Below, in pieces: positions 6,293 to 52,711 of a stretch of DNA of 64,000 nt (position 1 is the stretch's first letter; every line of letters starts with the position of its first letter). The translations under genes were made by a program, and so were the position numbers. Source of the stretch: Mustelus asterias (taxonomy: Eukaryota); the NCBI RefSeq assembly GCF_964213995.1, contig NW_027590185.1, positions 62,001-126,000 on the forward strand, read 5' to 3'. The notes below the pieces were generated by a model, which was given only the letters and a program-made list of their open reading frames with translations, did not search any database and was not told where the DNA came from.

Positions 6293-7606
6293 GCCACAGT
6301 CAGAGCACCGGAAAGGTCACTAATGGGTGTGACTGCCATGGTGTCTCAGCAGCTTGGGTGAACAAGTGAATCCTTTCCCACACACTGAGCAGGTGAATGG
6401 TCTCAGTTTGGAAACTAAGGGAAAATAAAATTTCAGGCAGAAGCTTCCAATCTGGTAGGTTTTATGAGAAATCGCTGAAAGTGAGTGGGAATTATCAGGG
6501 TCTCTCCCCAGTGTGAATTCCCTGATGTTTCAGTAGGTCAGATGATGTTCTAAACCTCTTTGCACAGTGAGAGCGCCTGACATTTCAGTCATCCTCAGTG
6601 TGAATGCGCTGGTCGAACCTCAGGTAGGCTCAGGTTTTAAAGCAGCTCCCACAGTCAGAGCATTGAACAGGTTTCTTATTGGGGGAGGTGCCTCAGTATT
6701 CCAGCAGACTGGATGATTGACTGAGTCACTTCCCACACACACATCAGATGAATGGCCTTTCCCCAGTGTGTAATCCTTTGTGTCTCAGCAGACTAGATAA
6801 TTGAGTGAATCCCTTCCCACACTCGGAGCAGATGAATGGCCTCGGCCCAGTGTGAATGGGTTGGTGTGTCAGCGGGAGGGATGAGTGAGTGAATCCCTTC
6901 CCACACTCTGAGCAGGGGAACAGCCCCTCAACCGTGTGAAATCGCTGGTGGTTCTGCAGGGTAGATGACTGAGTGAATCCCTTTCCACACACACAACAGG
7001 TGAATGGTCTCTCCCCATTGTGAACCCGCTGGTGTGTCAGCAGGGCAGACGAATCGCTGAATTTCTTCCCACACTCAGAGCAGGTGAATGGCCTCTCCCT
7101 GATGTGAAGTCGCTGGTGATTCCTCAGGGTGGATGAATCACGAAATCCCCTTCCAAACTCAGAGCAGGTGAACGGTGTCTCCACAGTGTGGCTGCATCGA
7201 AGGGTTTCCAGCTTCGAGGGACAATTGAATCCCTTCCCACAGTCCCTACATTTCCATGGTCTGAGTGTCTTTGTACATCTCCAGGTTCAGATGAAGGTTT
7301 GACCCCACAGATGACACATACATGGTCTCTCTCTTCACTGTGAATCCTTCAATCTTTTCCAGGCTGTGTAACTGGTTAAAGCTCTTTCCACAGTCAGTTC
7401 ACTGGAATACTCTCACTCGAGTGTCTGTGTCTCAGTGATTTTCCAGTCACACTGATGTTTAAACAGTTTGAAGGGACAGACAAACATTTTCCATTCTAGT
7501 TTCAAATGCCGATGGTATTCAGATCCTGAATAATTGGGTGACTCTGTCAGATCCTAACGTCATGTTTGTTGAGATTTGTGTCTGTAAATTCTCCCCTTCT
7601 AATAGC
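6293..7606 (-). pseudogene. C2H2 ZNF pseudogene (locus Z1), paralog of Z9
   Basis: ORF 6744..7184 holds ~5 fingers; finger-like sequence continues both ways with in-frame stops, lost Cys/His and indels; acceptor tttcacag|g at 7606; array cut by the LTR at 6292. Confidence 0.85.
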
Positions 7607-8266
7607 CTGTGAAAGAAATTCACAAAAATCATTGCTGTCAGTACAGGATTAAAAACTCAGAACAGACAATTCTAGTTTCTGTGGAACATTCTTTCCTCTC
7701 ATTCTTGAAAATTTGTAAATCTCCATCCCAAACACTCTCCCTCCATTCTCACTTTGCTGGACCTGAAATAGACATTGTCCTGAGGGTGCTGATTCATCCT
7801 AATCGACAGATCCGTGCTGACTGTTTCATGTACTGGACACATATTCCTGAAATCTTGTGTCTTAGCATATAAAAAATTTGCATATTTAGTGAACTAAAAA
7901 TGTAAGCAATATTCAGCACTCTATTACATGATTAGAGATACAGATGGGTGCGGAAGAACTTGACTTGGGGAGCAAGCAATCATGTTCTGGAACTCACTGA
8001 CGATGAGAGTGGTGGAAGTGGAGATGACCAGTGATTTCAAAATAAAATTGGTTGGGCACTTGAAGGAATGAAACGTACTGGGGAACAGGGATATGGAGGA
8101 AAAATGGCACTGAGTGGATTCCCCGACAGAGACTTGGCACGGACTCAAGTTGCTGAATTGATTTATCTTGTGCTCTGATGACTCTTTGACTGGAAAATAT
8201 ACAGTGTAGTTACAACATCAACTGTAATACAAATCCATAAATAACATACCTAATATGCACCATATA

Positions 8267-8466
8267 GTAAGAAGTCTCCCAACACCAGGTTAAAGTCCAA
8301 CAGGTTTATTTGGAATCACAAGCTTTCAGAGCGCTGCCCCTTCATCAGGTGAGAAGGAGCAGCGCTCAGAAAGCTCGTGATTCCAAATAAACCCGTTGGA
8401 CTTTAACCAGGTGTAGTGAGACTTCTTACTGTGCCCACCCCAGTCCAACACCGGCATCTCCACATC
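8267..8466. mobile_element. Penelope-derived foldback element with hammerhead-like core and 14-bp target-site duplication (TSD)
   Basis: Inverted arms across 8266-8430; TSD atatgcaccatata at 8253-8266 and 8467-8480; minus strand CTGATGA-aggggcagcgctct-GAAA at 8348-8324; absent at the paralogous site ~52400. Confidence 0.75.
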
Positions 8467-8832
8467 ATATGCACCATATAACAACACCAGACATATCAAT
8501 GTTGTTACGATCCTCATGGTCACCTTATAATAAACACATTCCCACAAATCCCAATCGAATAAACAAAGACAATGTTTCATTTTTTAAAAATGTTACTTTA
8601 AAAATTAATCTAAAATTAACATCACTGAATCATGCATTAAGAAACAGTATTTGAATAGACAGGATAAATTACACTTTAAAAAGCTCGGACAATAAAAACA
8701 GGTTCCACAAAATCACAAACATTTCCCCCTCAGTATATTTGGCTCTAATTCCAGTTCCAGAGAATTTCTCTGTCTCTGTATTTCCCAGGGGGAGAAAGAA
8801 AGTGTTTTCCTCACAGATGTTGTCCAGAGGAG

Positions 8833-9415
8833 GAAGTTGGAGTCTGTATGTGAAGTTTGAGTCTGTGGTGAAGTTTGAGTCTGTGGTGAAGTTTGAGTCT
8901 GTGGTGAAGTTTGGGTCTGTGGTGAAGTTTGAGGCTGTGTGTGAAGTTTGAGTCTGTGTGTGAAGTTTGAGTCTGTGGTGAAGTTTGAGTCTGTGTGTGA
9001 AGTTGGAGTCTGTGGTGAAGTTTGAGTCTGTGTGTGAAGTTTGAGTCTGTGTGTGAAGTTTGAGTCTGTGTGTGAAGTTTGAGGCTGTGTGTGAAGTTTG
9101 AGTCTGTGGTGAAGTTTGAGTCTGTGTGTGAAGTTTGAGTCTGTGTGTGAAGTTTGAGTCTGTGTGTGAAGTTTGAGTCTGTGTGTGAAGTTTGAGTCTG
9201 TGTGTGAAGTTTGAGTCTGTGTGTGAAGTTTGAGTCTGTGTGTGAAGTTTGAGTCTGTGTGTGAAGTTTGAGTCTGTGTGTGAAGTTTGGGTCTGTGTGT
9301 GAAGTTTGAGTCTGTGTGTGAAGTTTGAGTCTGTGGTGAAGTTTGGGTCTGTGGTGAAGTTTGAGTCTGTGTGTGAAGTTTGATTCTGTGTGTGAAGTTT
9401 GAGTCTGTGGTGAAG
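8833..9415 (+). repeat. 20/21-bp minisatellite (gaagtttgagtctgtgtgt / gaagtttgagtctgtggt variants), ~28 units
   Basis: Direct reading; only a single seed unit at paralogous 53768-53787. Confidence 0.95.
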
Positions 9416-9499
9416 CTACAAACAGAAGCTGTTCTGTTTCAAATCAAACTGCGGGACTTGGAAGAATTTGATGGGAAGAGATTTTGCAAAGTCCCCTCC

Positions 9500-10060
9500 C
9501 CCACTCCCTCAGCTGGCAGCCCAGCACGCAGGCGCAGAGAGCGCTGCTGAGCCGAGCTGTCCGGAGCAGGCGCAGAGAGCGCTGCTGAGCCGAGCTGTCC
9601 GGAGCAGGCGCAGAGAGCGCTGCTGAGCCGAGCTGTCCGGAGCAGGCGCAGAGAGCGCTGCTGAGCCGAGCTGTCCGGAGCAGGCGCAGAGAGCGCTGCT
9701 GAGCCGAGCTGTCCGGAGCAGGCGCAGTGCGGCTGCCGCCAGCGGTCGCTCTCGATCTCTTTTTGGAGCAGCAGCCGCCGTAGAGAGAGGGGGGAGGGGG
9801 AGATCACCGAGCGGCTTCTCGCTCTGGCCGGAGCCGCCAGCCGGTTGCCTGGAAACCTTGGCTCGAGGAGATGGCAGGGGGCGGGGGAATCAATGGGAGG
9901 GGGCGGGGCTCCCATGTCTGCGCGCCCGGGCCTGCGCACTGGAACTCCAGGACGTCACATCGGTACAGACTTATTCCTATTGGCTAATTCAGGCTAGGTT
10001 CCATTGTGACGTCACAATGCGGAAGTTGGCCAACGAGGTTCAGAGTGAAACTCCCGCTTC
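9500..10060. promoter_or_regulatory. CpG-rich bidirectional promoter of Z1(-)/Z2(+)
   Basis: High CpG density; NRF1-like gcctgcgc, ATTGG, 18-bp palindrome cattgtgacgtcacaatg (10002-10019, CRE core), ETS gcggaagt; candidate donor cag|gtatct at 10232. Confidence 0.7.
9528..9727 (+). repeat. 38-bp GC-rich tandem repeat, 5 identical units plus 10 bp
   Basis: Unit gcaggcgcagagagcgctgctgagccgagctgtccgga starts at 9528, 9566, 9604, 9642, 9680, partial at 9718. Confidence 0.97.
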
Positions 10061-11119
10061 TCGACAACATCTGGGAGGAAATCAATGTTTCCCCCTTTCC
10101 ATTTCTTTTCTCATTCTGGGAGAAATTGGGGACTTGCAGCAACTGAAGGGAAAGGAAGTGAATCCAGGGAGGCTGCAGACTCTGAAAACGTTACAGACGA
10201 ACATCGGAATTAGGAGCAAGACTAGGCCCAGGTATCTTTTTCTCTCTCAAAGACATTGACATCCTTTAGCTCCCTCACTTTGACACGTTTATATAGCTGG
10301 CGAATAGGATGGCCTCTTACCCAATGTTCATAATTCAAGGGGGAGTTTTCTCAGGAGAGGGCTAACATTTTAATGAACAGTAAATTTGTATGGGAGAGAG
10401 ATATGTTTAATGTAGTTACATGGTATATACTATGTTATTTACGATTCCCTATTTCTTGTCTTAAAATATATAGCAGTGTATCAACATTATCTATTTTCAG
10501 TGATGGAAACATTACAACATAGATTAGGCAACTCAGATCCATGCCAACTCTCTGTGGAGTAATTCAGTCAGTCCCATTCCCTCTCTATATCCCCATTCCC
10601 CTGTGTTTCATGTCACAATGGAATGGATGAGAGTTCCAAAGGAGCTGAGACTGGAGTAGAGTTGATCAATGGCACTGAGGTGGAAATAGGCGGTCTTGAT
10701 GATGATGTGGCTGGAAGCTCAACTTGGGGTGAAATATTTTACCATGGTTGTAAACAGTTTGCTCCAGCCTCAGACAGTTGCCAGGAAGAAGGAGAGAGTT
10801 GCTGGCGAGGGAGTGAGTTTGTAGTGGGGACTGAAGACAATGGGTTCAGTCTTCCCAGTGTTTATATGAAAGAAATTTCTGTTCTTTTAGTACTGGATGT
10901 CAGATAAGTCAGGATGGTGTGTGAGTTGGAGAGGAACTTGAAGGTGATGGTGTTCCCATCTATTTGCTACCCTGGTCCTTCTAGGTGGGTGGAGGTTGAG
11001 GGTTTGGGAAACTTTCTGTTAAAGTTCCAATTGAGTTGTCAATGTACAAAATCCCTCTCCTTCACCCTGACCTCTCCTACTTCTCTCTGTCTTCTCTCTG
11101 TGTCCAGAGTCTTGTGTCC

Positions 11120-11265
11120 AGACCGTGTGGCAGATTTCCTGCCCTGAAGGATATCAGTGAACCCGCTGGGTTTTTATGACAATCCAGCAGTTTTCATGAT
11201 TACTTTTTCCGAGTGCCAGCCCCACAAATGACCAGATTCATTCAGCTCAATTTCACAAACTGCCT
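11120..11265 (-). mobile_element. tRNA-SINE remnant just upstream of the ZNF acceptor (shared with Z7 and Z10)
   Basis: ggcagatttcctgccctgaaggatatcagtgaacccgctgggtttttatgacaatc matches the antisense of the SINE at 33940-34200 and 35870-36212. Confidence 0.65.
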
Positions 11266-11432
11266 TTGTGTTTTTGTGGGTTCTCTCTCACTTCCTTTTT
11301 TCTGTTTTAAATCAATTTCACAGGGCTTTAGAAGAGGAGGATTTGCAGTTGGGAAACTGAAACCAAATATTATATCAAAACCTGATGGAGTTAGCCAATT
11401 TGTTGTAACCTGAATATCATTGTGTTTTGAAC

Positions 11433-12302
11433 ATGGGAGGAAATAGCACAGTTCACAGTGAAGAGAAACTGTACACGTGTTCTGTGTGTGGACAAGACTT
11501 CAACCAATCATCCAGCCTTTCGGAACATAATTGCAGTCACAACAGGGAGAAGCTGTGGAAATGTGGGGACTGTGGGAAGGGATTCAATTACCCTTCCCAG
11601 CTGGAGATTCATCGGCGCAGTCACAGTGGAGAGAGACCATTCACCTGCTCCCAGAGTGGGAGGGGATTCACTCAGTCAAACAGCTTACATATACACCAGA
11701 GAACTCACACTGATGAGAGACCATTCAACTGCTCCCAGTGTGGGAAAGGATTCAGTGCCTCATCCCATCTGCTGAAACATCGGCGAATCCACACTGGGGA
11801 AAGGCCGTTCACCTGCTCTGTGTGTGGGAAGGGATTCACTCAGTCTTCCAACCTCGCATTACACCAGCGAATTCACACTGGGGAGAGGCCATGCACTTGC
11901 TCCCAGTGTGGGAAGAGATTTCCTCAGTCAGCCACCCCCTTCACACACCAGCGGATTCACACTGATGAGAGACCTTTTAAATGTCCAGACTGTGGGAAAT
12001 GCTTTAAAAATTCTGTAAATCTGCACTACCATCAACGTGTTCACACTGATGAGAAACCATTCAGGTGCTCTCACTGTGGGACTGGGTTCAAGCAATCATG
12101 TCAACTCACTGTACACCAGCGCACTCACACTGGGGAGAGACCGTTCACCTGCTCCCAGTGTGGGAATGGATTTGCTCACTCATCCACTCTGCTGACACAC
12201 CAGCGAATTCACACCGGGGAGAAGCCGTTCACTTGTTCCAAGTGTGGAAAGGTATTCAGTCAGTCATCCAATCTGCTGAGACACCAGCGAGTTCACAAGT
12301 AA
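11433..12302 (+). CDS. C2H2 zinc-finger protein (Z2), 10 fingers (third has Cys->Ser), no effector domain seen
   Basis: ATG in aacATGg at 11433; repeated CxxC-x12-HxxxH with TGERP linkers; acceptor tttcacag|g near 11323; ends HK*. Confidence 0.85.
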
Positions 12303-12415
12303 CTGTTGTGATTGGATTTTGCTGTTTTCGTGTTCAGACTGAATCATGTACCTTTGGGTCTGTTTCTGCTGAATTGAAAAGTGACTCCAGCTCTGTTATA
12401 GGTGTTGATATAATT

Positions 12416-12550
12416 GGTCTTAGAAGGGGAGGATTTGGGGTCAGGAAACTTGCACAAAACATCAGACCAGGATTGGATGGAATTGCACAATGTATTGTAA
12501 CCTGAACAGCAGAGAATTTTGAACATGGAAGGAAATAGCACCATTTTAAT
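12416..12550 (+). pseudogene. Truncated start of a further tandem ZNF exon (MEGNSTI...), cut by a CR1 insertion
   Basis: Re-copy of the Z2 exon leader (tagaaggggaggattt...ttttgaacATGgaaggaaatagcacc); paralog at 58990-59320 continues into fingers. Confidence 0.7.
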
Positions 12551-12554
12551 GATC

Positions 12555-14590: not shown

Positions 14591-14713
14591 AATGGGTCTG
14601 TTTCCATTGCTGTTAATAAACAACAGTCCATTTATAGATGTTAATATTGTGGATAATAGTCAAATAAATTGACTTAGTGTTAAACACACGGCCTTTTTAA
14701 TATCTTCAACACA

Positions 14714-14892: not shown

Positions 14893-15802
14893 TAGTCTTG
14901 TAATAGAACATTGTAACTATGTTAATATATTTCCAGGCATCGTTATTCCAATAGAGAAGGAGTCCATGTCAACTCCTTATAGAGCAATCCAGTCAGACCC
15001 ATTGCCCCTCCATCTACCCATTCTCCTGCAAGATTATTTCCTTCAAGTGCGCATCCAGTTTCATTTTGAAATCTTTAATTGCTTTCACTGCCACCAGATC
15101 CATGGGCACCCAGTTCCAGATCATGATCACTTGCTGCACCCACCACATCTCCAACCAAGTAATGAGTGCTGCATATTACACACATTTGAACAGGAAGTGA
15201 TGAGCATGGATTGGTTAACCAACATGAATTGGCACCTTTAGGAGAATTGGGAGGGTGTATTGTGGGATACAGCAGGGTAAGAATAGTGGGAAAAAGTAAA
15301 GAATTTTCTCTAAAAACTGGAATTGTCTTTTCTGAATTTCTAAGTTGCACTGACAGTGATGAATTTTGGAAATTCGTTTTACAGGATATCAGAAGAGGAT
15401 TTCCAGACAGAACATAGAACATAGAACAGTACAGCACAGAACAGGCCCTTTGGCCCACGATGTTGTGCCGAGCTTTATCTGAAGAATCTCAGAAATCTCA
15501 AAACAAACACTCATGGTGATCTGACAGATTAACTCCATTCATCGGGACCTGGACAACATCAGCCTTTGGAATCTACAAAGAGAAATATTTGTCTGTTCTT
15601 CTGCTTCAAGAGATTTCAACCATAAATGTGATTGGAAAAGCATGGACGCACATAGATCGGAGTGAGAGCGTTCCAGTGAACTGACTGTGGAAAAAAACTC
15701 AAACACAGCTTGAAAAGACAGCACCAGTCACATTGGGGTGAGACCGTTCGGGTGTTTTGTTGTGGATGAGGCTTTAGCTGACTGTCAAACTGGGAGAGAC
15801 AC

Positions 15803-16744
15803 ATGGACACCAGCACCATGGAGAAGCCGTGGAAATGTGGAGACTGTGGTAAAGGATTCAATTTCTCACACCAACTGGAAACTCATCGATGTAATCACAC
15901 TGGGGAGAGGCCGTTCATTTGCTTGGAGTGTGGGAAGGGATTTGCTCATTCATCCTCCCTGCAGACACACAAACGAGTTCACACAGGGGAGTGGCCATTC
16001 ACCTGCCCCGAGTGCGGGAAAGGATTCACAAGTTCATCCCACCTGGAGACACACAAGCGAGTTCACAGCGGGGAGAAGCCATTCACCTGCTCCGATTGTG
16101 GGAAGGGATTCAGTGAATCATCCAACTTGCTGATGCACCAGCGAGGTCACACCGGGGAGAAATGGTTCACGTGTTCAGAGTGTGGGAAGGGATTCACTCA
16201 GTTATCCCACCTGCAGACACACGAGCGAGTTCACACCGGGGAGAGGCCATTCATCTGCCCTGAGTGTGGGAAAGGATTCAGTAATTCATCCAACCTGCAG
16301 AGGCACCAGCGAATTCACACCAGGGAGAGACCGTTCAGCTGCTCCGAGTGTGGGAAGGGATTCACTGATTCATCCTATCTGCTGATACATCAGCGAGTTC
16401 ACACTGGGGAGAGGCCGTTCATCTGCCCTGAATGTGGGAAGCGTTTCCCTTATGCATCAAATCTGCAGAAACATCAACGATTGCACACTGGGGAGAGACC
16501 ATTCACCTGCCCAAATTGTGGGAAAACATTCACTCAGTCATCCCACCTGCAGACACATCAGCGAGTTCACACTGGAGAGAGACCATTCACCTGCTCTCAG
16601 TGTGAGAAAGGATTCAGTAATTCATCCAACCTGCGGACACACCAGCGAGTTCACACTGGGGAGAGACCGTTCACCTGCTCTGACTGTGGGAAAGGATTCA
16701 CTAAGTCATCGCAACTGCTGAGACACCAGCGAGTTCACAAGTGA
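15803..16744 (+). CDS. C2H2 zinc-finger protein (Z3), 11 fingers
   Basis: ATG at 15803 and Kozak accATGg at 15818; 11 intact fingers; ends HK*; acceptor tttacag|g near 15384. Confidence 0.88.
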
Positions 16745-16771
16745 TGACAGGGGTTGGATTCTGCTGTTATT

Positions 16772-17113: not shown

Positions 17114-17114
17114 T

Positions 17115-18093: not shown

Positions 18094-18109
18094 ATCAGCC
18101 CAACCCTGA

Positions 18110-19953: not shown

Positions 19954-20712
19954 TCACTTGTGAATTTGCTGGTGTGTCAGCAGGTTAGAAGATTGAGTGA
20001 ATCCCTTCCCACACATGGAGCAGGTGAATGGTCTCTCCACAGTGTGAGTGCGCTGGTGTTTCAATAGATGAGATGAACAAGTAAATCTTTTTCCACACTC
20101 GGAGCAGGTGAATGGCCTCTCTCCGCTGTGAACTCGCCGGTGAGTCAGCAGTGCGGCTGATCGAGTGAATCCTTTCCCACACTCGGAGCAGGTGAATGGT
20201 CTCTCTCCAGTGTGAGTGCGTCGATGTCTCAGCAGATTATCACGGTTTTTAAAGCTCTCCTCACAGTCAGGACATTTAAAAGTTCTTGCATCAGAGTGAG
20301 TGCGCTGGTGTCTCAGCAGGTTGGATGAATTAATGAACCCCTTCCCACACATGGAGCAGGTGAACGGCCTCTCCCCAGTGTGAGTGCGCTGGTGTACAGT
20401 GAATTCAGATGATTTCCTGAACCCAGTCCCGCAGTGAGAGCACCTGAATGGCCTCTGGTCAGTGTGAACACGTTGATGGGACATCAGGTCCCCAGAACTT
20501 TTATAGCCCTTCCCGCAGTCTGGGCATTTAAAAGGTCTCAGGTCAGTGTGAACTCGCTGGTGTTGCAGCAGGTTGGATGACTCTCTGAATCCCTTCCCAC
20601 ACATGGAGCAGGTGAATGGCCTCTCCCTAGTGTGAGTGCGCTGATGGATTTCCAGCTGGGACGGCCATTTGAATCCCTTCCCACAATCCTCACATTTCCA
20701 CGGTTTCTCCAT
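19954..20712 (-). CDS. C2H2 zinc-finger protein (Z4), 9 fingers
   Basis: Kozak ggcaccATGg at 20712 ([10 protein letters not shown]); 9 intact fingers; ends HK*. Confidence 0.88.
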
Positions 20713-21737
20713 GGTGCCGATGTGTCTCTCCAGGTTGTTGATCAGTTGAAGGCTCCACACACACACAACACGTGTACAGTTTCTCCCCAATGTAAATGGC
20801 GTGATGTTTTTTCAGGGTGTCTAACTGGTTAAAGCTCTTTCCAGCCAGAACACCTTCACTCGGGTGTATGTGTGTGTGTCTCGGTGCTTTCCCAATCACA
20901 CTGATGTTTGAAATCTTTTCCCACAGACAGAACAGAAATCCTTTCTCCTTCCACATTCACATCCCGATGCCTCAAATAGCTCCGTCAGATCTTGACGTGA
21001 TGTTAGGTTTGAGTTTCCTCTCCTTCCAATATCCTGGAAAAGAAGTTTACAAATGTCATCACGGTAAATCCAGGATAGAAATTCAGAACAGGCAATTCCA
21101 GTTTCTGTGGAACATTTTTGTTCCCCATCCCACACAATCCCCCTGCGCAGAATCCAGTGAAGTGTCTTTCCTTCACTCCCAGTTTTCCCTCCCCCATTTC
21201 TCTGGCTGTGTTCAGATCTCCAGCTGCTGTTTGCAGAATAAGAATAAAATCAATCATTTTCTCTCCTGGTCACTGCTCCCTGATGCCCCGCCAACCCAAT
21301 GCCCCTTCACTAACACGGCCACACATGTACACTGTTGGTTGGACAAGACTCGCCAGCTTCCTCCCTCAAGTGGCACCTAGTCACCTGAGTACCTTGGGCA
21401 TGACACCAAAAGAGCCCCACCTTCCCGATCTGCCCTGACTTCCTATTTCATTGGTAGTCTCTTGGGTTTGAGGATGACTTGCCTGATCTGTTTGTTAAAT
21501 CCATCCATCTCCCTTGATTCCATAATCCTTAACACTCTCATCTCACAACCTTCTTACAATCTGTTTTTAAATTTTCTGTTGACTGAATCTGATCAGAATT
21601 CCAGATTTCTATTTCCCGTGAAGTGATTCCTGACATTGCTCCTGAACAGCCCAGTCTCAGTTAAACAAATAAATATCGCTGATTTGTATATTTAAATTGT
21701 GACAATTATTTTACTCTGAACTTTAAAAAAAACACGA

Positions 21738-22010: not shown

Positions 22011-22020
22011 AACAAAAAAA

Positions 22021-23757: not shown

Positions 23758-24201
23758 AACAAGAGAGGAAAGAATGTTCCAGAGAAACTAAAATTGTTCA
23801 AAATTTCTATCCTGGACTGACTGATGACTTTTGTAAACTGTTTTACAGAATATTGGAAAGGAGGAATTACAGACAGAAATAGATATCACATTGAGATCTG
23901 ACAGAGTCACTCGATTCATCAGGGTCTGAATATCATTGGCCTTTGAATGTGGAAGGAGAAAGGTTTGTTCTGTCTGTGGGAAAAGATTTCAAACATCAGT
24001 GTGACTGGAAAAGCACTGAGACACACACAAATACCTGAGAGAGTATTTCTGTGAACTGACGATGGAAAGAGCTTTAACCAATTACACAGCCTGAAAAAAT
24101 GGCACACCATTCACAGCAAGGAGAAACTGTTCACATGTTCTGTGTGTGGACGAGGATTCAACTGAGTGTCCAACCTGGAGAGACACAAGAACACCGGCAC
24201 C

Positions 24202-25182
24202 CTGGAGAAACCATGGAAATGTGGGGATTGTGGAAAGGGTTACAGTTACCCTTCTGAACTGGAAATGCATCGACGCGCTCACACTGGGGAGAGGCCGTTC
24301 ACCTGCTCCACCTGTGGGAAGGGATTCACTCAGTCATCCAGCCTGCTGACACACCAGTATGTTCACACTGATCAGACACCTTTCAAATGTTCTGACTGTG
24401 AGAAAACATTTAAAAGCAAAAAGTATCTGCTGAGGCACCAACACATTCACAGTGAGGAGAAGCCGTTCACCTGCCCCTTGTGTGGGAAGCGATTCACTGC
24501 TACATCCAACCTGCAGAAACACCAGCGAGTTCACACTGACAAGAGACCGTTTAAATGTCCGGACTGCGGGAAGTGCTTCAAAACCTCCGGTGAAGTGACG
24601 TGTCATCAACGTGTTCACACTGACGAGAGACCATTTAGATGTTCTCACTGTGGGACTGGGTTCAGACGATCATCTGAACTCACTATACACCAGCGAATTC
24701 ACACTGGAGAGAGACCATACACCTGCTCTGTGTGTGAGAAGAACTTCATTCAATCATACCACCTGCTGAAACACCAGCAAATTCACATCAATGTAAAACC
24801 TTTTAAATGTTTTGACTGTGAGCAGAGCTTCAAAAGCAGCAAAAGTCTCGTGATGCACCAGCGAGTTCACACTGGGGAGAGACCGTTCACCTGCTCTGTG
24901 TGTGGGAAGGGATTCACTCAGTCATACAACCTGTTGAAACATCAGCGGATTCACTCTAATATAAAACATTATAAATATTTTGATTCTGAACAGAACATTA
25001 AAAGTAGCAATGATCTAATGATACCCCAGCAAGTTCACACTGGAGAGAGACTGTTCACCTGTTCCGAGTGTGGGAATGTATTCACTGACTTACAGCAAAT
25101 GCTCAGACACCAGCAACTTCATGAGTGTCTGCAGGGGTTGGATTCAACTGCTTTTGCTGCTGTTAATCACATTGAGGACTGA
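24202..25182 (+). CDS. C2H2 zinc-finger protein (Z5), 10 intact + 1 degenerate finger; start codon uncertain (CTG at the family ATG position)
   Basis: ggcaccCTGgag at 24202 where paralogs have ggcaccATGgag; first Met lies inside finger 1; C-terminus extends through the usual stop (HECLQGLDSTAFAAVNHIED*). Confidence 0.72.
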   Translation: MEKPWKCGDCGKGYSYPSELEMHRRAHTGERPFTCSTCGKGFTQSSSLLTHQYVHTDQTPFKCSDCEKTFKSKKYLLRHQHIHSEEKPFTCPLCGKRFTATSNLQKHQRVHTDKRPFKCPDCGKCFKTSGEVTCHQRVHTDERPFRCSHCGTGFRRSSELTIHQRIHTGERPYTCSVCEKNFIQSYHLLKHQQIHINVKPFKCFDCEQSFKSSKSLVMHQRVHTGERPFTCSVCGKGFTQSYNLLKHQRIHSNIKHYKYFDSEQNIKSSNDLMIPQQVHTGERLFTCSECGNVFTDLQQMLRHQQLHECLQGLDSTAFAAVNHIED

Positions 25183-30400: not shown

Positions 30401-30488
30401 TTGAAAGCTTCCACAGAAACTAGAATTGTCTGCTCTGAATTTCTGTCCTCTATTTACATTGATAACTTCTGTAAACTCCTTTTACAGG

Positions 30489-31602
30489 GGGTGAGAGGGA
30501 GAGGAGTTCCAGACAGGAAAGTCAGAACAAACATCATGTCAAAATCTGAGAGTCACTCGATTCATCAGGAGCTGAATATCATTGATCTTTGAATGTGGAA
30601 GGAAAAATGTTTGTCTCTTCTGTCTGTGGGAAAAGATTTCATAAATCTGTGAGACTGGGAAAGCACCGAGCCCCACACACACCCGAGGGAGAGTGTTCCA
30701 GTGCACTGAGTGTGGAAAGAGCTTTAAACAGTTACACAGCCTGAAACTACATCACATTCACAGAGGGAAGAAACTATACAACATGTGTGTGTGGACGAGG
30801 ATTTAACTGATCATCCAACCTGGAGAGACATGATGACACCGACACCACAGAGAAACCGTGGATATGTGGGGACTGTGGGAAAGCATTCACTTGCCCATCC
30901 AAACTGGAAACACATCGACGCACCCACACTGGGGAGAGACCCTTCACCTGCTCCATGTGTGGGAAGGATTTCACTCAGTCATCCAACCTAGCATTACATC
31001 AGCGTGTTCACACTGGAGGGGCCGTTCAGCTGCTCTGTGTGTGGTAAAAGGTTTATTCAGTCATACAATCTAGCGTTACACCAGCGGGTTCACACTGGGG
31101 AGAGGCCATTCACCTGCTCCGTGTATGGGAAGGGATTCATTAATTCCTCTAACCTAGTGGCACACCAGCGAGTTCACTCCGGGGAGAAACCATTCAGCTG
31201 CACTGACTGTGGAATGAGCTTTAGGCTTTCATCCACCTGCTGAAATACCAGCGAGTTCACACTGAGGAGAGGCCATTCAGCTGCACTGACTGTGGAAAGA
31301 GTTTCAGACACTCAGGCAGTCTCACTGTACACCAGCGAGCTCACACTGGGGAGAGGCCATTCACCTGCTCCGAGTGTGGGAAGGGATTCACTGATTCATG
31401 TCAACTGCTGAGACATGAACGAGTTCACACCGGGGAGAGGCCGTTCACCTGCTCCGAGTGTGGGAAGGGATTCATTGATTCATCTCAGCTGCTGAAACAC
31501 CAGCGAGTTCACACCGAGGAGAGGCCATTCACCTGCTCCGAGTGTGGGAAGGGATTAACTGATTCATCTCAGCTGCTGAAACACCAGCGAGTTCACAAGT
31601 GA
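30489..31602 (+). pseudogene. C2H2 ZNF pseudogene (Z6)
   Basis: No ATG at the family start (accACAgag); 2-nt deletion ~31017 leading to TAA; further shift ~31232; last three fingers are near-identical 84-bp copies; terminal HK*. Confidence 0.82.
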
Positions 31603-37374: not shown

Positions 37375-38130
37375 TTACACATGAAGTTGCTGGTGTCTCA
37401 GCAGGTAGGATGACCGAGTGAATCCCTTTCCACATTCGGAGCAGGTGAATGGTCTTTTCTTGGTGTGAGTGCGCTGGTGTACAGTGAGTTCAGATGACTG
37501 CCTGAACCCAGTCCCACAGCTGGAGCACCTGAACAGTCTCTCGTCAGAGTGAACTCGCTGATGGCCAATCAGATCCCAGCGTCTTTTATAACACTTCCCA
37601 CAGTCCAGACATTGGAAAGGTCTCTCGTCAGAGTGAACTCGCTGATGGCACATCAGATCCTCAGAACCTTTAAAGCCCTTCCCACACTCCTGACATTTAA
37701 ATGGTCTCTTGTCTGCGTGAACTCGCTGATGTCTCAACATGTTGGATGAATCAGTGAATCCTTTCCCACACTTGGGGCAGGTGAATGGTTTCTCCAAAGC
37801 GTGAATTCGCTGGTGCTTCAACTGGTTGGATAAATCATTGAATCCTTTCCCACACACAGTACAGCTGAATGGCCTCTCCCCAGTGTGAACTCGCCGGTGT
37901 CTCAGCAGGCTGGATAAATCACTGAATCCCTTCCCACACTCGGAGCAAGTCAATGGTTTCTCAGCGTTAGTGCGTTGATGAATTTCCAGCTCAGATGGGG
38001 AACAAAATGACTCCTTCCAAGTGTGAACACATTTATGTTGCGACAAGCCTGAGGATCGACTGAAGCCTCGTCCACACACAGAACAGGTGTATGGTTTCTC
38101 CCCACTCTGAACGGTGCTTTTTCCTTCCAT
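37375..38130 (-). CDS. C2H2 zinc-finger protein (Z7), 8 fingers plus one half-deleted finger
   Basis: aacATGg at 38130 ([16 protein letters not shown]); in-frame deletion removes the Cys half of the WKC finger ([16 protein letters not shown]). Confidence 0.83.
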
Positions 38131-42364: not shown

Positions 42365-43085
42365 ACAAAGGTCGCCGCTCCTGCGCCGTACTGCCCCCTA
42401 CAAATATGGCTTCCGCGCCTGCCTGCTGCTACACTTCGCCCCTGACAAAGATGCCGGCCGCACATGCGCACTGATGGACATTGCCACCGACAGATTGGCG
42501 GCCGTCAGCCCAGGCCCAACGCGACAAGTTGCGCCACTAGTTTGGTACTAACTGGGCGCCCGGGAAGTTATTTTCCGAAGTTTGGATTTGAATAACATGT
42601 TTACGAAGCCTCTCCACCCACCCGCCACATTCATCGCTCTCTACGCGCCGCTCTCCACCTTGAACTAATCTCGGATCCAAACTAAAACCGTCCGTCCGCC
42701 GCCATTACGCACACTGCGCATGCCTCAGACCCTCCCCCATTCACTCTGGTTGGAGGACCACCCGCTCCCGCTCAGTCCTCCAGCCCCGCCCCCTTTACCT
42801 ATTGGCCCGGAGCCGCCGTCAATCAGTCCCGGGCATTGTGACGTTGAGCATGCGCAGTGCGGCTCATGTCCAGGGACAGGCGCTTGTTTGTCTGATCGTC
42901 AGGCGGGAAGGAGGCGGATAAGCGGAGGCAGCGTTAGGGGCAGTGGGTGGGAGGGGAGGCTCCACACACCCAGTGGAGGCTTCAACACCCCCAATAAGGA
43001 ACTAGCGGCACCGCCTCAACACCCAACACAACGGCAGCTGCAGCGCTTTCTCCCGGGGCCAGGCCCCACTGGACAAATGTGGCTT
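42365..43085. promoter_or_regulatory. CpG-island bidirectional promoter of Z7(-)/Z8(+)
   Basis: Dense CpG; NRF1-like gcacatgcgca, tgcgcatgcc and gagcatgcgcag; YY1-like ccgccatt; GC box; ATTGG; 42795-42865 is homologous to 22872-22945. Confidence 0.78.
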
Positions 43086-43299
43086 CAGGAAGGAAATGCA
43101 GCAATGGGTTTGATTTGATTTATTGTCACATGTATTGGGATACAGTGAAAAGTATTGTTTCTTGCGCGGTGTACAGACAAAGCATACTGTTCATAGAGTA
43201 CATAGGGGAGTAGGAAAGGAGAGAGTGCAGAATATAGTGTTACAGTTACAGAAAGGGTGAAGAGAAAGATCAGCTTAATATGAGGTAGGTTCATTCAAA

Positions 43300-44118: not shown

Positions 44119-44119
44119 T

Positions 44120-44640: not shown

Positions 44641-45496
44641 TGAAATTTTGTATATATTCCAGTGATAGTTGGAAGGAGTCCATGCTGACTCTCTGTACAT
44701 CAATCCACTCAGTCCCATTTCCCCTCCATAACTCTGTTCCCTTTTTAATTCCTTTACACCTATCTGATTTATTTTTCAAATCATTGATCATTTCTGATTC
44801 CACCAAGCACAGAAGCAGTGAGGTCAGGTCGTGACCACTCGTGAATAAAATTGTTCCTCACATCTCCTTTCTATTGCTGATCAAATAATATGTTTAGTAA
44901 TGTGGACATTGGCTAGCAGCCTGCATGAAGATTTTCAGGTCTCTTTGTACTGGACAGGAGCCTGAATCAGCACCTTCAGGAGAATTGGGAGGGTGTGTAT
45001 GAGGTACAGCAGTATGACAATGGGGGGAGAGTGTGTGGGATGGAGATTTACAACTTTGGGGAATGAGAAAGCAAAGAATATTTCATGGAAACTAGAATGG
45101 TCTGTTTTGAATTTCAGTCCTATACTTACACTGATAACTTCTATAAACAGGATATTAGAAGGAGAGAATTTACAGACTGAAATCTCACACCAAACGTCAC
45201 AACAAGATGTTACAAAGTCACTGGATTCATCAGGACCTGAATATAATTGCCGTTTGAGTGTATGAGAAGAAATGTTTGTTCTGTCTGTGGGAAAAGATTT
45301 CAAACATCAGTGTGACTGGACAAGAATGGAGACCCCACACACCTGAGTGAGAGTGTTCCAGTGAACTGACTGTGGAAAGAGTTTCAACCAGTAACACAGC
45401 CTGAAAAACATCACCCCATTCACAGCGAGGAGAAACTGTACATGTGTTCTGTACTTGGATGTGGAATCAACTCATTATCAAAAGGACACTGGCACC

Positions 45497-46339
45497 ATGG
45501 AGAGACCATGGAAATGCGGGGACTGTGGGAAGGGATTCCAGTGCCCATCTGCACTGGACACACATCGACGAGTTCACACTGGGGAGAGGCCGTTCACCTG
45601 CTCCGTGTGTGGGAAGGGATTCAGTATATCAACCACCCTGCTGAGACACCAGCGAGTTCATTCTGGGGAGAGGCCGTTCACCTGCTCCGTGTGTGGGAAA
45701 GGATTCACTCAGTTATCCAGCCTGCTGACCCACCAGCGAGTTCACACCGGGGAGAGGCCTTTCGCCTGCTCAGACTGTGGGAAAGGATTCAGTGATCGTT
45801 CCACCCTGTGGAGGCACCGGCGAGTTCACTCTGGGGAGAGGCCGTTCACCTGCTGTGTGTGTGGGAAGGGATTCAGTCATTCATCCACCCTGCAGACACA
45901 CCGTGTCACCCACACGAATGAGAGACTGTTTAAATGCTCAGACTGTGGGCGTAGCTTCAAAAGCTCTCAGACTCTGATGGGCCACCAGCGCATTCACACT
46001 GAGGACAGACCGTTCAGCTGCTCTTACTGCGTGAAGAGATTTAGAACATCATCCCAACTGCTAATACACCAGCGAGTTCACACTGGGGAGACACCCTTCA
46101 CCTGCTCTGTGTGCAGGAAGGGTTTCAGTTATTCATCCACCCTGTTGGCACACCAGCGAGTTCATACTGGGGAGAGGCCATTCACTTGCTCTGACTGTGG
46201 GAAGGGATTCACTCAGATCTCCAATCTGCTCACACACCAGCGAGTTCACACTGGGGAGAGGCCGTTCAGCTGCTCTGAGTGTGGGAATAGATTTAAACGG
46301 TCGTCTCACCTGCTAAGACACCAGCGAATTCACAAGTGA
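45497..46339 (+). CDS. C2H2 zinc-finger protein (Z8), 10 fingers
   Basis: Kozak ggcaccATGg at 45497 ([10 protein letters not shown]); 10 intact fingers; ends HK*. Confidence 0.88.
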
Positions 46340-47656
46340 TGACAGGGGTTGGATTCTGCTGTTATTGCTGCTGTTAATCACATCCAGGACTGAACCATGT
46401 TCATTCTGACAGTTGCTGAAGTGAGAGGGTCGGAGGGTTTCTTTCTGCTGGCCTGACCAACCTCACGGCTTTGCTTCCAGTGGGTCGATGCTGTTTGAAT
46501 TTGGGAGTGCACATTTTACTGAGATGATCCACAAACAGGAGGTAAATCGAAAATAAATATATTTGTCTCTGTTCCAGTGAGTCTACAGCACAGGGCCGGG
46601 CCAGTCGGCTCAATTGGTCTGTGTCAGTATTTATGCTCCACATGAGCCTCCACCCACCCCTCTTCATCTCCCCCCATCAGCATATCCTTCTATTCCTTTC
46701 TCCCTCATGTGTGTATCTAGCTTCCTCTTCAATGTATTCATGCTGTTCACCTCAACCACTCGCTGGTCGCGAGTTCCACATTCGCATCATCTTCCTCATC
46801 TCTGGAACCATTCTGGTAAATCTCCTCTCGACTCTCTCAAGGACCCTCACATCCTTCCTAAAGTGTGGTGACCAGAACTGGGCTCAGTATTCTGTTGTGG
46901 CCTCACCAGAGCTTTAGAAACTATCAGAATAACTTCCCTGCTTTTGTTCTCAATTCCCCGATTTCTGAAGCCCAAGATCCAAAATACTCCAAACAAGAAT
47001 ATCGGACCTTTTTGCTTCACATAAAAAGCATTTTAACAACATTCTTAAAATGGCTAAATAAGATTTTGTCCAATGAAGGAACGAGTTGTTGGCACAGAAA
47101 AAAGCCGCTATGAACTTGCTCTCTCCAAAAGAGAATCCAGAATGTTTGAGCCTGGGAAATGGGAGTTAAAAATGAAGCTGCAGCTACAACAGAGCAAGAA
47201 GAAGACATTTCAATGTGGAATTGACTGGAATATTCTCTCTGGATTTAAACAATGGAGGAACTACAAACATGGAAGAAAGTAAAGTTCAAAAGATGAACTC
47301 TGAACAGACTGTTTTCAGAATTGAAAATCCACAACTGAACAGCAATGAGGACTCTTCTCTTGTAGAAGAAACTATAATTATTAAAAATTACTATAATTAC
47401 TGAAAGAAGAAAACTTTCAGAAAACACTGAAACCAATAATATTTTCCATCTTCAGTGGACTGAATTCCTGGACATGGAACCCAGCAGTGTGCTGTTACCA
47501 AGCTGGACTTGTGAATGTGAAGTGGACAATGGAGGGATTATTATGTCTATTGCAGGTTATAAGATAGTTAAACATAGGAAAACATTGGACTTAGGAACAG
47601 GAGTAGGCCATTTGGCCCTTCGAGCCTGTTCCACCATTCGATTAGATCATGGCTGC

Positions 47657-49246
47657 TGTTAAGATATACAGTATGCTTTACATTGTAATATTCTAATTGG
47701 GATATTATAGTGATACATTTTCATTTCTTCCAGGGAATATGTTGTGAAGATCTAGTTTAATAATTCATGATTTTCAGAAGTAAATTAGTTTTGGATTTTT
47801 TTTTAAAAATGTAACAACTGGAAAACCTGGGTTGAGAATCTGACAAAAACACCCTGAGGGAATCCGCAGTCACAAGGTGTGGCCCATGTTGGTTTGAGAA
47901 GTCAAAGCGAGAAGGGTAAGAACAAGTGTAACACGGCAGCTGGGCTCTTTTAGCTGGAGACATTGGGTCTGACAGTTTTTCTCCTGTCTTTGTTCGAGAG
48001 GGGAATTCTTCACGCAGACCTCAGGAAAAAAGGTTTGGTTCTGAAACTAAAAGTTAATTAATTTAAACATCTTTTGGACATCCCAACTGGTCTGTTACCA
48101 TGAGGATAAGTGATTCAGGGTGGTCTTGGTTGGAATTCGGGGTGTTTTTCACAGAAAGCAGGGAGTCTGCAGTTAGCTTGGGAGCTGTGGGAGCGGGAGC
48201 TGTGAACCAGCTGTGGGAGTGGGAGCTGTGAACCAGCTGTGGGACCGGGAGCTGTGAACCAGCTGTGGGAGCGGGAGCTGTGAACCAGCTGTGGGAGCGG
48301 GAGCTGTGAACCAGCTGTGGGACCGGGAGCTGTGAACCAGCTGTCGGAGTGGGAGCTGTGAACCAGCTGTGGGAGCGGGAGCTGTGAACCAGCTGTGGGA
48401 GCGGGAGCTGTGAACCAGCTGTGAGACCGGGAGCTGTGAACCAGCTGTGGGACCGGGAGCTGTGAACCAGCTGTGGGACCGGGAGCTGTGAACCAGCTGT
48501 GGGACCGGGAGCTGTGAACCAGCTGTGGGACCGGGAGCTGTGAACCAGCTGTGGGACCGGGAGCTGTGAACCAGCTGTGGGACCGGGAGCTGTGAACCAG
48601 CTGTGGGACCGGGAGCTGTGAACCAGCTGTGGGAGCGGGAGCTGTGAACCAGCTGTGAGACCAGAAGCCGAGGAGGTCATTAGGAACCATGGGTGTTCCC
48701 AATGTTTAAATCCCTCAGCAAGAAGGCAGTGAAGTCCATGCTTGGATTGAGGAGTCCATGTTTTGAGTCAATTTTGAAATCTCAAAGGAAAGTTGGAGAG
48801 TTGTTTAGCCGAAAGCTAATAGAAGGATCCTCATGAAATCTTGGAGTCTGGAGAATCGCTGGATTACTGAGGAGAATTAAAGTGAATGCTGGGAGCTTTG
48901 ACATACCTTTGGGATTTGTCCCAGGAACAGAAGTGAATGCACATTCAAGATATTAAGTATAAGGGCATTCTTGTCGAGGAGTAAGGGTTTAAAAAGTACA
49001 AAAACTGAAAAATGCTGCAAAATCTCAGCAGGTCTGGCAGCATCTGTAGAGAGTGAAAACAGAGTTCATGTTTTGAGTCAGAACTGAGTTTACAGAATAA
49101 ATCTTTACAAAATATAATTCATCGAGCTGGTTTTTAATATTCTGTTTATATTCAGTGAAGTTTGATTTTGTTTAAAAACCTGGAATCTTGTGATGGGTGT
49201 TTGGATTTCTCACTGAACGTTAATGTTCTCGACCCGAATTATAACA
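47657..49246. mobile_element. Solo LTR candidate containing a 26-bp minisatellite
   Basis: TGTTAAG...TATAACA termini; homologous to 4291-5483. Confidence 0.62.
48195..48662 (+). repeat. 26-bp minisatellite (gggagctgtgaaccagctgtgggacc), 18 units
   Basis: 468 bp / 26; single unit in copy A at ~4948-4972. Confidence 0.96.
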
Positions 49247-50226
49247 ACACACACAATATTTCAAAACTATTTGAAAAATAAAAACATGGTCTTTATTTTG
49301 TACAAAGTATTACATTATAAGACACCCCTCATCGAGGATCTACAATAATTTCTTAGCTTGAGCACCAGTGAAACAATCAGATAAATGAATAAAAATTGTA
49401 CTCATTGTCGTCCCTTCTGAATCAGGAGGGTTATCCCCAGCACAGAGGGTCATTTGGAATTTTTCCCGCAGACCAATTAACAGGGATTATACTCTCCAAC
49501 CATCTGAAGTGAATTCTTTACATGAATTGTCCAGGCCGGTGCAGCTATCAACTTGCGGTTTGGCTGATCAGCTAAGATTTTCTGCAGCATTTCATCGATC
49601 ACCGAGTGATTCCTTTCACAGAGTCCATCACTGAAAGGACTTTCAGCTGCCGTGTTCCTGACCAGAATGTTCATGTTTTCACACACGTCTCCAAACTCAT
49701 CATTCAGAAACTGAGCTGGTGCCACAGCTCCAGCCCCAAGGGCCAAAGGAAGGTTTACTATTGGGATGTGATGGCATCCTCCAATAATTTTTATATTGTA
49801 CGCTTTGTCTCTTGTATGAGTCTCGTGTATTCTTCATCAACTGCTCCTGCATCTTGAAGCAGGATTTTTAATCTTTGGCAAGTAGTGTGAACAAATTATC
49901 TGTGTAGTTTTAATATAATTTGCATCTTTCCCTTCTGATTTTTATCAAAGATGTCATTATTCCTTCTCAAACATTCAGATTGGAAATGTCAGGTATTTTT
50001 AAACATTCTCTGTTACCACGTTATAATCCTGACCGTCTTATGGTGAAGGAGGAAACTGGTTCCAATCTTTACTTGGTATAGATTTATTCACAGAGTGAAA
50101 CATTACAGGTATATAACTCCTAATACCATTCCATGCTCTGTCAGTAAGTGTCTATATGTGCTCATGTAAACATCTAATCAATGTCCACTGCTTGTATATA
50201 TTTAACCCCAAATTATACAATTAACA
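49247..50226 (-). mobile_element. Internally deleted Copia-like element: LTR 50019-50226, PBS 50001-50018, integrase remnant
   Basis: PBS TGGTAACAGAGAATGTTT (15/18 to the tRNA-iMet complement); NDEFGDVCENMNILVRNTAAESPFSDGLCERNHSVIDEML is an rve integrase core. Confidence 0.8.
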
Positions 50227-50279
50227 CCCGCAGGCAGAGTATTTAAAAGGTCTCTAATCGGTGTGACTGCCATAATGTC

Positions 50280-51473
50280 TCAGCAGGTTGGATGACTCAG
50301 TGAATCCTTTCCTACACTCAGAGCAGGTGAACAGCCTCTCTCCTCCGTGTGAACTTGCTTGTGTTTCCGCAGGCTGGAAGGATCAGCAAATCCCTTCCCA
50401 CATTCAGAGCAGGTGAAAGGCTTCTCCCCGGTGTGAACTCGACGGTGTGTCCGCAGACTGGACGACTCAGTGAATCCTTTCCCACACACACAGCAGATGA
50501 ATGGCCTCTCCCCGGTGTGAACTCGCCGGTGTTTCCAGAGGCTGGAGGAATCAGTGAATCCCTTCCCACACTCAGTGCAACTGAACGGTCTCTCTCCAGA
50601 GTGAATTCGCTGGTGTGTCAGCAGACTAGTGGACCTAGTAAATCCCTTCCCACACACAGAGCAGGGGAATGGCCTCTCTCCAGTGTGAACTGCTTGATGT
50701 CGCAGCAAGGTTGATAACTGAGTGAATCCCTTCCCACACACGGAGCAGGTGAATGACCTCTCCCCAGTGTGAACTGCCTGGTGGTTCTGCAGGGTAGATG
50801 ATGCACTGAATCCCTTCCCACACACGGTGCAGGTGAACGGCCTCTCCCCGGTGTGGACTCGCTGATGTATCAGCAGGTGAGATGACCGAGTGAATCCCCT
50901 CCCACAGTCAGAGCAGGTGTATGGCCTCTGCCCGGTGTGAACTCTCTGGTGCTTCTGCAGAGCAGAGGAATCACTGAATCCCTTCCCACACTCTGAGCAG
51001 CTGAACAGCTTCTCCCTGGCGTGTATTCGCTGGTGTCTCCGCAGGTTGGATGAAAGAGTGAATCCCTTCCCACACACTGAGCAAGCAAATGACCTCTCCC
51101 CAGTGTGAACTCGCTTGTGTCTCCGGAGGCTGGATGAATCCCCGAACCTCTTCCCACACTCAATGCAGGTGAAAGGCCTCTCCCCCGTGTGAATGCGTCC
51201 GTGTGTCAGAAGACGGGATGAATCAGTGAAACCCTTCCCACATTCAGAGCAGGTGAATGGCCTCTCCCCAGTGTGAATTTTCTGATGTGTCAGCAGGTTG
51301 GATAACTGAGAGAATCCCTTCCCACAATCAGGGCAGGTGAATGGCTTCTCCCCAGTGTGACTGCGTCGATGAATCTCCAGCTCACACGGTGCTTTGAATC
51401 TTTTTCCACAGTCCCCACATTTCCACTGTTTCTCCCTGATGCGGGAGGCCGCCTGTCCCTCCAGGTTTGACAA
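50280..51473 (-). CDS. C2H2 zinc-finger ORF (Z9), 13 intact fingers, no in-frame ATG
   Basis: Open for 397 codons with all 13 fingers intact; no Met in the ORF; bounded by in-frame TGA at 51476-51474; 2-nt slip near 50340 cuts off a 14th finger. Confidence 0.62.
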
Positions 51474-52711
51474 TCAGATGAAGCCTCGTCCTCACTGAGA
51501 ACAGATGTACAGTCCCTCTCAATGTAAATGGGGCAATGCTTTTCAGGCTGTGTAACCTGAACACACACTCAGGTTTGTACTTCTCAGTGCTTTTCCAGTC
51601 ACACTAATGTTCAATCTTTTTCCACAGACAGAAACAAACCCAAACAATTCTCCTTCTCGAGTCAAAGGCCAATGATATTCACGTTGTGATTAATCGAGTG
51701 ACTGTCAGATCTGAACGTAATGTTTTGTTTTGATATTTCTGTTCTGTAAATCCTCCCCTTCTAATATCCTGTGAAAGAAGTTTACAAAAGTGAACACCAT
51801 GCACATAGAAAAGAAATTCAGAATGGACAATTCTCGATTCAATGAAACTATTTTCTATTCTTTTATTCCTGAAAAGTTGTAAATTTCTGTCCCACACATT
51901 CTGCACCGAATCTTCACCCTCCCGATTCTGCTGAAGCTGCTGGTTCATGCTCCAGGACACACAGACCTGAGAATCTTCAGGCAAGCTGTTCACCGATATA
52001 TCCCTTATATTCATATAGAACTGGACTATCATTTGTGTAAAAGTGCTATATTACTTTATTAGAGAGAGGTCGGGAATATGTGTAGAAGGTTATTTTGGAC
52101 TTCAAGTAGTCATAAACTGGAATTCACCCCACATGCGGATGGTGAAAGCAGAGAGAACCCATGATTTCAAATGATGTTGGTCATTCAAAAGAAATAAATG
52201 TAGGACAGTGATACAGAGGGGGAATGGGACCCACTGGATTGTTCTATGGAGAGTTGACATGGACTCGAGTTGCCAAATGGACTCTTTTTGTGCTGCAATG
52301 TCTCACTGACTGGAAATATATAACATAACTATATTACTATATTCCAAGAATAGAAATAAAAAATAAATACTTTACTGCAGCACCAAAAATAATACATCTA
52401 ACATGTACAATAACAAAACTAGAAACACCTCTGTTATGATCTCCATAGAGACTGATAATCTTCAAATAAACAATTCCCAGACAATCCCAATGGAATAAAC
52501 CAAAGAATAAGGTTTCATTAATTTCATACTTTTACTGCAATAACCAAACTAAAATCAACATAAATGAAGCATGCATTCACAGACAATGGTACTTGAACAG
52601 ACAGGATAAATTTGACTTTAAATAGTTCAGACAATAACAACAGGTTCCACAAAATCACAAAGATTTACAAATATTTACAAGCATCACAAACCAGCCTCCC
52701 ATCCATTGACT

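Follow-up and report, generated by a model that had tools for sequence, protein, structure and literature searches.

The window analysed here, 64,000 nucleotides of Mustelus asterias (contig NW_027590185.1, positions 62,001 to 126,000 of the forward strand), contains ten loci of tandem C2H2 zinc fingers (Z1 to Z10), and at seven of these the finger array is preceded by a leader containing dead fingers. The leader is best explained as the dead front, consisting of a spacer and three fingers, of an ancestral gene which itself survives, with stop codons that were likely fixed in one founder and with most copies now likely translated as finger-only proteins from an ATG in the linker; the probability of this reading is put at about 0.75. 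Two codons are followed throughout: site 1, the helix +3 codon of leader finger 1 (FQTSV*LEKH), and site 2, the helix −1 codon of finger 3 (GFN*SSNL). The original prediction was correct in this numbering, and re-reading of the sequence bore out its codons, with TGA at site 1 in six loci (15629, 24002 and 45313, and 7449, 20898 and 51601 on the reverse strand) and AGA in Z6 (30652), and with TGA at site 2 in five (15779, 24163 and 30808, and 20744 and 51476 on the reverse strand). Site 2 reads TCA in Z8 and is deleted in Z1. Z2, Z7 and Z10 represent a different subfamily, termed type B as opposed to the stop-bearing type A, in which fingers 1 and 2 are absent and finger 3 is coding; their site 2 codons, also confirmed, are CAA (11505), CGA (38058, reverse strand) and CAA (55810), respectively.

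Within the genome of 3.68 Gb, the leader gives 2,983 first-look candidates, the family being put at about 2,500–3,000 such candidates, and its closest named relatives are shark proteins. Leaders were sampled in 864 kb of tiles which had not been selected for stop codons; of the 115 profile matches, 70 full leaders were retained and 45 partial ones excluded. Site 1 in these 70 is TGA in 68, TAA in one and AGA in one, and site 2 carries a stop in 67 (TGA 51, TAA 16), with another codon in three. A pattern with fixed flanks matched 759 times genome-wide, with site 1 being TGA in 703, TAA in 24, TGG in 14, TTA in 12, TAC and CGA in two each, and AGA and CAG in one each. The sharing of these codons is thus no matter of chance. 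A third stop, TAA at position −2 of finger 1, is present in 30 of the 70 leaders. A collection of 1.26 Mb provided 120 full type A copies among 187 matches and 27 type B copies among 43. Copies whose site 1 codon is CGA, AGA or TGG were considered as intact ancestors and rejected, being degenerate and nested in the tree described below; no full leader was obtained for the CAG match (L113), and L240 is a short fragment. It should also be noted that a second, partial leader lies in tandem upstream of the full one at L012–L019, L026, L027 and L030, and that TAA stands at site 1 in the six that were scored.

The leader is not protein-coding, and the array behind it is coding sequence which diversifies fast. 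All 70 full leaders contain a frameshifting indel (of a length that is not a multiple of three), as expected from the claim that the leaders carry lesions other than the stops, and no bias by codon position is found. When changes are placed on a 71-copy tree, omega is 0.97 for the spacer and 1.47, 0.99 and 1.01 for the three dead fingers, and nonsense changes occur at the expected rate; as the rate table was derived from leader and intron sequence, what is informative in these values is that silent and non-silent changes are evenly balanced. The first three live fingers have an omega of 0.59, with nonsense changes at 0.39 of expectation, and the cysteines and histidines of the array show 0–3 changes against 30–42 at helix positions −1, +3 and +6 (fingers 2 and 3). 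Indels number 1.3–1.6 per 100 bases in the leader versus 0.2–0.5 in the array (68 copies), and the divergence of 66 close pairs is 0.048 in the leader, 0.042 in the upstream flank and 0.097 in the array. At least five fingers and a clean end are present in 72 of 115 arrays, and all five window proteins examined matched Pfam zf-C2H2 and zf-H2C2_2, with tandem C2H2 fingers joined by TGEKP-type linkers. Forty tiles centred on pattern matches were kept out of the omega and site-conservation tests. The placement of the stops at base-contacting positions, to which the original prediction attached meaning, carries little weight: among 11 codons prone to become stops by a transition, three are contact codons, which gives both stops a chance of about 0.055 of falling there (calculated after the fact), and the other common leader stops fall outside such positions.

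A genome-wide protein search was conducted using the leader with its stops masked, in which only the best candidates were scored. Of the 150 scored matches, only L208 and L213 were free of stops, each being found once and having a frame open from the acceptor over 376 and 418 residues, respectively. L208 (positions 4898–6025 of its tile, reverse strand; G000:C1) lies on a 202-Mb contig with no further finger array within 60 kb. Its acceptor, phase and spacer are those of the family, it has three live fingers, its leader region shares 80% identity with the majority sequence of the family, and its codons at sites 1 and 2 are TGG (tryptophan) and CAA, respectively. L213 is GC-rich and likewise has TGG at site 1. 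Both relatives share acceptor, phase, spacer and fingers 1–3 with the leader family and differ from it in being single finds with open frames and with constraint on fingers 1 and 2. Between the two, the contact residues of this finger pair are kept and silent sites are saturated (proportion of non-silent differences, pN, 0.15; of silent differences, pS, 0.78), and the pair is under strong purifying selection. The part lost from the family is therefore a spacer with a strongly conserved finger pair, type B having lost the pair by deletion. A protein search with the front end of the intact gene yielded no shark orthologue, only 19 generic zinc-finger proteins; a search with the spacer gave one candidate, with none scored, and is weak evidence. 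The search of representative proteins was dominated by long arrays and included five matches with family motifs. An open frame at L212 (6528–6910), 40 kb from the intact gene, is perhaps a pseudogene fragment, and we take it to resemble ATP synthase subunit alpha.

The two stops would have arisen in different ways. Both had been attributed to CGA to TGA changes in arginine codons, and this origin suits site 2, which is CGA in nine and CAA in nine of the 27 type B copies, with the basal branches mostly CGA; its stop would have come about by CpG decay of CGA. It does not suit site 1, where the stop would derive from TGG by a change to TGA, since both intact relatives carry TGG. In type B, 22 of the 27 copies have an ATG of their own from which finger 3 is translated.

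A tree rooted on L213 placed L208 as sister to all type A copies, which form a near-simultaneous, star-like radiation bearing TGA, with tips mostly 0.1–0.2 changes per site deep. The AGA, TAA and TGG variants at site 1 are nested within type A, and the 12 cluster copies with TGG fall in two nested clades and carry an upstream TAA and frameshifts. This agrees with the proposed fixation of the stops in a founder, and the sequences indicate that both were likely fixed in one founder before multiplication. In a tree built on shared columns, types A and B grouped together (99) and type B formed a single clade (91), so that the protein lost its conserved finger pair on two occasions, through stops in A and through deletion in B. 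Off-frame readings of the leader were also found in automatic gene models of Heterodontus francisci (P0115, P0154) and Cetorhinus maximus (P0005), whose residues fit off-frame, stop-bearing copies and neither the intact gene nor type B; as the models fix two of three bases at most, this match is inferential. A gene model of Chiloscyllium starts at the linker ATG. As these models come from Heterodontiformes and Lamniformes, together with that of Chiloscyllium, the comparison suggests that both stops are old and that the events took place at or before the base of the Galeomorphii.

With respect to expression, it is expected that the leader serves as a 5′ untranslated region and that, in most copies, a finger-only protein would be translated from the ATG that lies in the former linker following finger 3. 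Of 120 copies, 106 retain the AG of the acceptor, and 100 of 115 retain the linker ATG, mostly in strong Kozak context; in 72 of 97 copies the first in-frame stop met upstream of this ATG is site 2, at a distance of 13 codons. An old internal ATG would open an upstream open reading frame (ORF) of 11–15 codons, ending at site 1 or at a nearby TAA; among the 97 copies with the linker ATG, site 1 terminates 54 upstream ORFs and the nearby TAA another 27. Because this ORF precedes the array, the latter would have to be reached by leaky scanning or reinitiation. In two lineages lacking the linker ATG, a CTG located behind site 2 has turned into a new in-frame ATG (in one of them in all 16 copies), which supports initiation there. 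In many copies a CpG-rich stretch lies one to a few kb upstream, some of these stretches being retroelement ends.

Several observations weigh against this account. At least one upstream ATG is found within the exon in 93 of the 97 ATG copies, overlapping in 19. The ATG codon has undergone nine changes, where the neutral rate table predicts about 10.7, and its frequency is alike in intact (63/72) and broken arrays (37/43). The subfamily of Z9 (22 copies, 93–100% identity) has AGG in its place in 22 of 22 copies and no methionine in the frame of 20. Its leaders contain eight distinct frameshifting indels, and the array, with an omega of 0.54, is free of them over its first 900 bases; an early stop occurs in three of its copies. 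The cluster copies come out as monophyletic with low support (52, and 47 in the shared-column tree), and the first exon of L208, discussed below, is a prediction from sequence alone. The start site is therefore less certain than the original prediction suggested, given the loss of the ATG at about the neutral rate and the frame kept by the Z9 subfamily without it. This subfamily may start at the CTG behind site 2, or may use a new acceptor created by the AGG change.

Alternative explanations of the stops themselves find little room. They could be read through, by leakiness of UGA-C, as selenocysteine, or after adenosine-to-inosine editing of UGA to UGG, which would restore tryptophan at site 1. 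Site 1 was indeed ancestrally tryptophan, has CTG directly after it in 45 of 70 copies and is the least changed of 328 triplets in the 71-copy sample. This hint of special selection on the TGA triplets failed genome-wide, where 42 matches show variation in the first two bases of site 1 versus 26 for the preceding two bases, in a comparison whose control pattern omitted one base change and whose copies are not independent. Site 2 was not tryptophan and is often TAA, as given above. No stable RNA structure was detected in five stretches including the upstream block described below and the leader (mean z −0.04 to +1.0), and Rfam gave no matches, selenocysteine insertion sequences included, in four loci of 3 kb, distant 3′ untranslated regions lying outside that scope. 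As the leader evolves as non-coding DNA, with its frame broken in every full copy, omega near 1 and nonsense changes at the neutral rate, none of these mechanisms would have anything to rescue, and read-through, already doubted in the original prediction, is extremely improbable. The TGAs could instead have arisen independently in decaying copies through CpG deamination, as true CGA codons of the leader do decay in this way (three codons, TGA in 15, 18 and 13 of 70 copies) and TGA occurs at site 2 of two type B copies. However, site 1 was not ancestrally a CpG, its TGA is common to nearly all full leaders whereas the real CpG sites divide among CGA, TGA and CAA, and the sense variants are nested in the tree. 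Independent origin, named at the outset as the finding that would speak against a founder, is considered very improbable.

The remaining alternatives concern what becomes of the dead leader and are less remote. In some or many copies it could be spliced out or bypassed, by joining a short first exon to an acceptor behind site 2 or by a CUG start. The consensus of branch points is CTRAY; site 2 fits it, and such a function would tolerate the exchange of TGA for TAA. The Z9 subfamily keeps its frame without an ATG, its AGG change makes CAG/G in the phase of the ancestral acceptor, all 22 of its copies preserve a CTG in strong Kozak context, and conservation of the main ATG is not detectable. On the other hand, among the rows listed for four runs of other organisms aligned at L134 (15 of 1,123 joints and 40 of 1,149 differences), contigs guessed to be RNA and possibly pre-mRNA or DNA cross from the array over site 2 into the leader unbroken, site 2 is not unusually conserved (p 0.16), and typical copies have no polypyrimidine tract, so that bypass is judged unlikely. 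A slightly better, still low, chance is given to the leader being kept for a non-coding task, as an upstream-ORF brake or as a splicing or transcription element. Leader bases 211–270, in dead finger 2, change more slowly than expected whichever frame is considered (0.53–0.64 of expectation; shuffle p 0.0005), and site 1 or the nearby TAA terminates upstream ORFs as described. Yet the whole leader diverges at a flank-like rate, indels within bases 211–270 are as frequent as in the rest of the leader, and gene conversion or low mutability could produce the same dip.

The original prediction further proposed that the arrays were insulated from an upstream effector exon. A first exon of L208 is predicted 1,753 bases upstream, with 12 codons and two bases and an in-frame join, and no Pfam, KRAB or other domain was detected in any of 16 translations (that of the spacer, and three sense frames for each of five upstream stretches of 1.9–2.9 kb, farther exons lying outside this scope). 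As the first exon would be tiny and no upstream domain was found, insulation has nothing to act on; the upstream scan is of limited sensitivity, since it also missed a visible retroelement fragment. In one type B subfamily (L178:5644–5781 and 8044–8205) the spacer is open and can join a first exon, the ATG of which lies in what we take to be a YY1-like motif. This exon was rejected as an effector domain, as close copies contain frameshifts.

The likeliest role of the family would be that of diversifying, sequence-specific DNA binders directed against mobile elements, by analogy with KRAB-ZNF and FiNZ-ZNF clusters; the putative binders would act by occupying their sites or via an unnamed partner. 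With the KRAB-ZNF clusters of tetrapods the family has in common tandem clusters, a single array exon, invariant cysteines and histidines, hypervariable contacts and many broken copies. It differs in that no KRAB exon was detected in the 16 translations and in that the family as a whole starts downstream of an inherited and now dead portion of its own coding exon. KRAB-domain families are reported as enriched among cartilaginous-fish losses in the whale shark genome paper (PMC8455134). FiNZ-ZNFs of cyprinid fish, which are described as having a conserved acidic N-terminal domain of 28 residues on its own exon (Wells et al., 2023; PMC10547256), are similar in having expanded across a lineage into hundreds of clustered genes, in consisting of two parts and in the fast evolution of their arrays. 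In the cluster copies of the shark family, the N-terminal part evolves without protein constraint (omega about 1, the spacer at 0.97), and the first exons of one type B subfamily carry frameshifts. Repression of mobile elements is reported for FiNZ-ZNFs (PMC10547256) and would extend to the shark family by analogy. KRAB-like ZNFs of ray-finned fish likewise consist of C2H2 fingers in tandem, their lineage reportedly being without TRIM28 and KRAB-ZNFs, and differ in keeping an N-terminal domain, with proposed TRIM33 binding, of which none was found in the shark family (PMC11603059). Since tandem fingers are reported to stall ribosomes in zebrafish (PMC11620358), stalling is, by analogy, a possible reason for a translational brake.

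Among the seven window leaders, the linker ATG is kept only in Z3, Z4 and Z8, its position being CTG in Z5, ACA in Z6, AGG in Z9 and deleted in Z1. The Z3 leader (15385–15817, forward strand) has a short insertion and both TGAs (15629 and 15779), and is followed by an array of 11 fingers (15818–16741) starting from an ATG with strong Kozak context. On the reverse strand, the Z4 leader (20713–21033; TGA at 20898 and 20744) precedes nine fingers read from ATG (19957–20712). The Z8 leader (45151–45496, forward strand; TGA at 45313, TCA at 45472) leads into ten fingers, also from ATG (45497–46336). The Z5 leader (23849–24201, forward strand; TGA at 24002 and 24163) is followed by ten fingers (24202–25179), and eight of ten close relatives have ATG at its start position. 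The Z9 leader (51438–51768, reverse strand; TGA at 51601 and 51476) contains the candidate non-AUG start, CTG at 51464–51462 in strong Kozak context, ahead of 13 fingers in an open frame without methionine (50283–51437). The Z6 leader (30488–30846, forward strand) bears AGA at site 1, a nested revertant, and TGA at 30808, and its array (30847–31599) is a probable pseudogene with its frame broken after two fingers. The Z1 leader (7260–7606, reverse strand; acceptor at 7607/7606, TGA at 7449–7447), with site 2 and the ATG deleted, precedes an array of four fingers, probably a pseudogene as well. The type B loci are Z2 (11433–12299, forward strand), with its own ATG, Z7 (37378–38130, reverse strand) and Z10 (55723–56436, forward strand), in which ATG has become ATA, followed by a 4-base deletion.

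The pairs Z1/Z2, Z7/Z8 and Z9/Z10 are arranged head to head, each with one type A and one type B member, and a stretch lying between the members of Z1/Z2 recurs with 88% identity between those of Z9/Z10 (9948–10496 and 53950–54501). CpG-rich stretches lie between Z1 and Z2 and between Z7 and Z8 (42401–43200 is also listed for these pairs). Young tandem arrays with units of 19, 38 and 26 bases are found at 8833–9415, 9528–9727 and 48183–48662, respectively. Z9 (50283–51768; 22 copies, 93–100%) and Z5 (23849–25179; 11 copies, 94–100%) are held in recent large duplications, part of which may be assembly duplicates. A common tail of 18–20 codons at the array ends lies behind the stop in most copies and within the protein in a few, Z5 (25130–25179) being one of these.

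A conserved block, about 130–200 bases long, was also found upstream of the acceptor (reference L134:1795–1924, reverse strand), at more than 80% identity in 47 of 120 copies and more than 93% in 38, diverging at about half the flank rate. Within the window, a remnant 90% identical lies before Z8 (44959–45047, forward strand), with further remnants at 7719–7841, 15190–15291 and 51910–51951. The block has exon-like ends and a short ATG-led frame; a role as coding exon was not supported, as changes are mixed and deletions of 10 and 19 bases occur. The Pbx/Prep DECA motif TGATTGACAG (PMC6023610) is present as its reverse complement in 31 of the 47 blocks, and the block showed no Rfam match and no RNA structure. 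A degenerate homologue lies within the intron of the intact gene. Retroelement 3′ ends, presumably Tx1-like, are located directly upstream of the block in two unrelated copies (L134:2130–3025 and L058:7900–9300).

Loss of an N-terminus followed by recruitment of a later start is an ordinary event. No paper on the leader of this family, nor on inheritance of such a loss by a whole family beside an intact relative, was found in a literature search that left subscription papers outside its reach. It is a tentative and rather doubtful suggestion that loss of the finger pair freed a single-copy gene, twice, to become an effector-less defence family of a thousand copies in sharks, with the dead fingers as translational control and with CUG or a new acceptor used in Z9-like copies. 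Accounts of the expansion and function of tandem zinc-finger families have a gap where lineages lack KRAB. Here the founding events are readable because the family can be compared with an intact relative: a conserved finger pair was lost, a new start taken up, and fast change of the contact residues followed. The dead leader also explains the wrong-frame automatic gene models in several sharks. The comparison with the intact relative makes two questions testable, namely whether bare arrays act against mobile elements, and how translation proceeds with several upstream ATGs or with none in frame.

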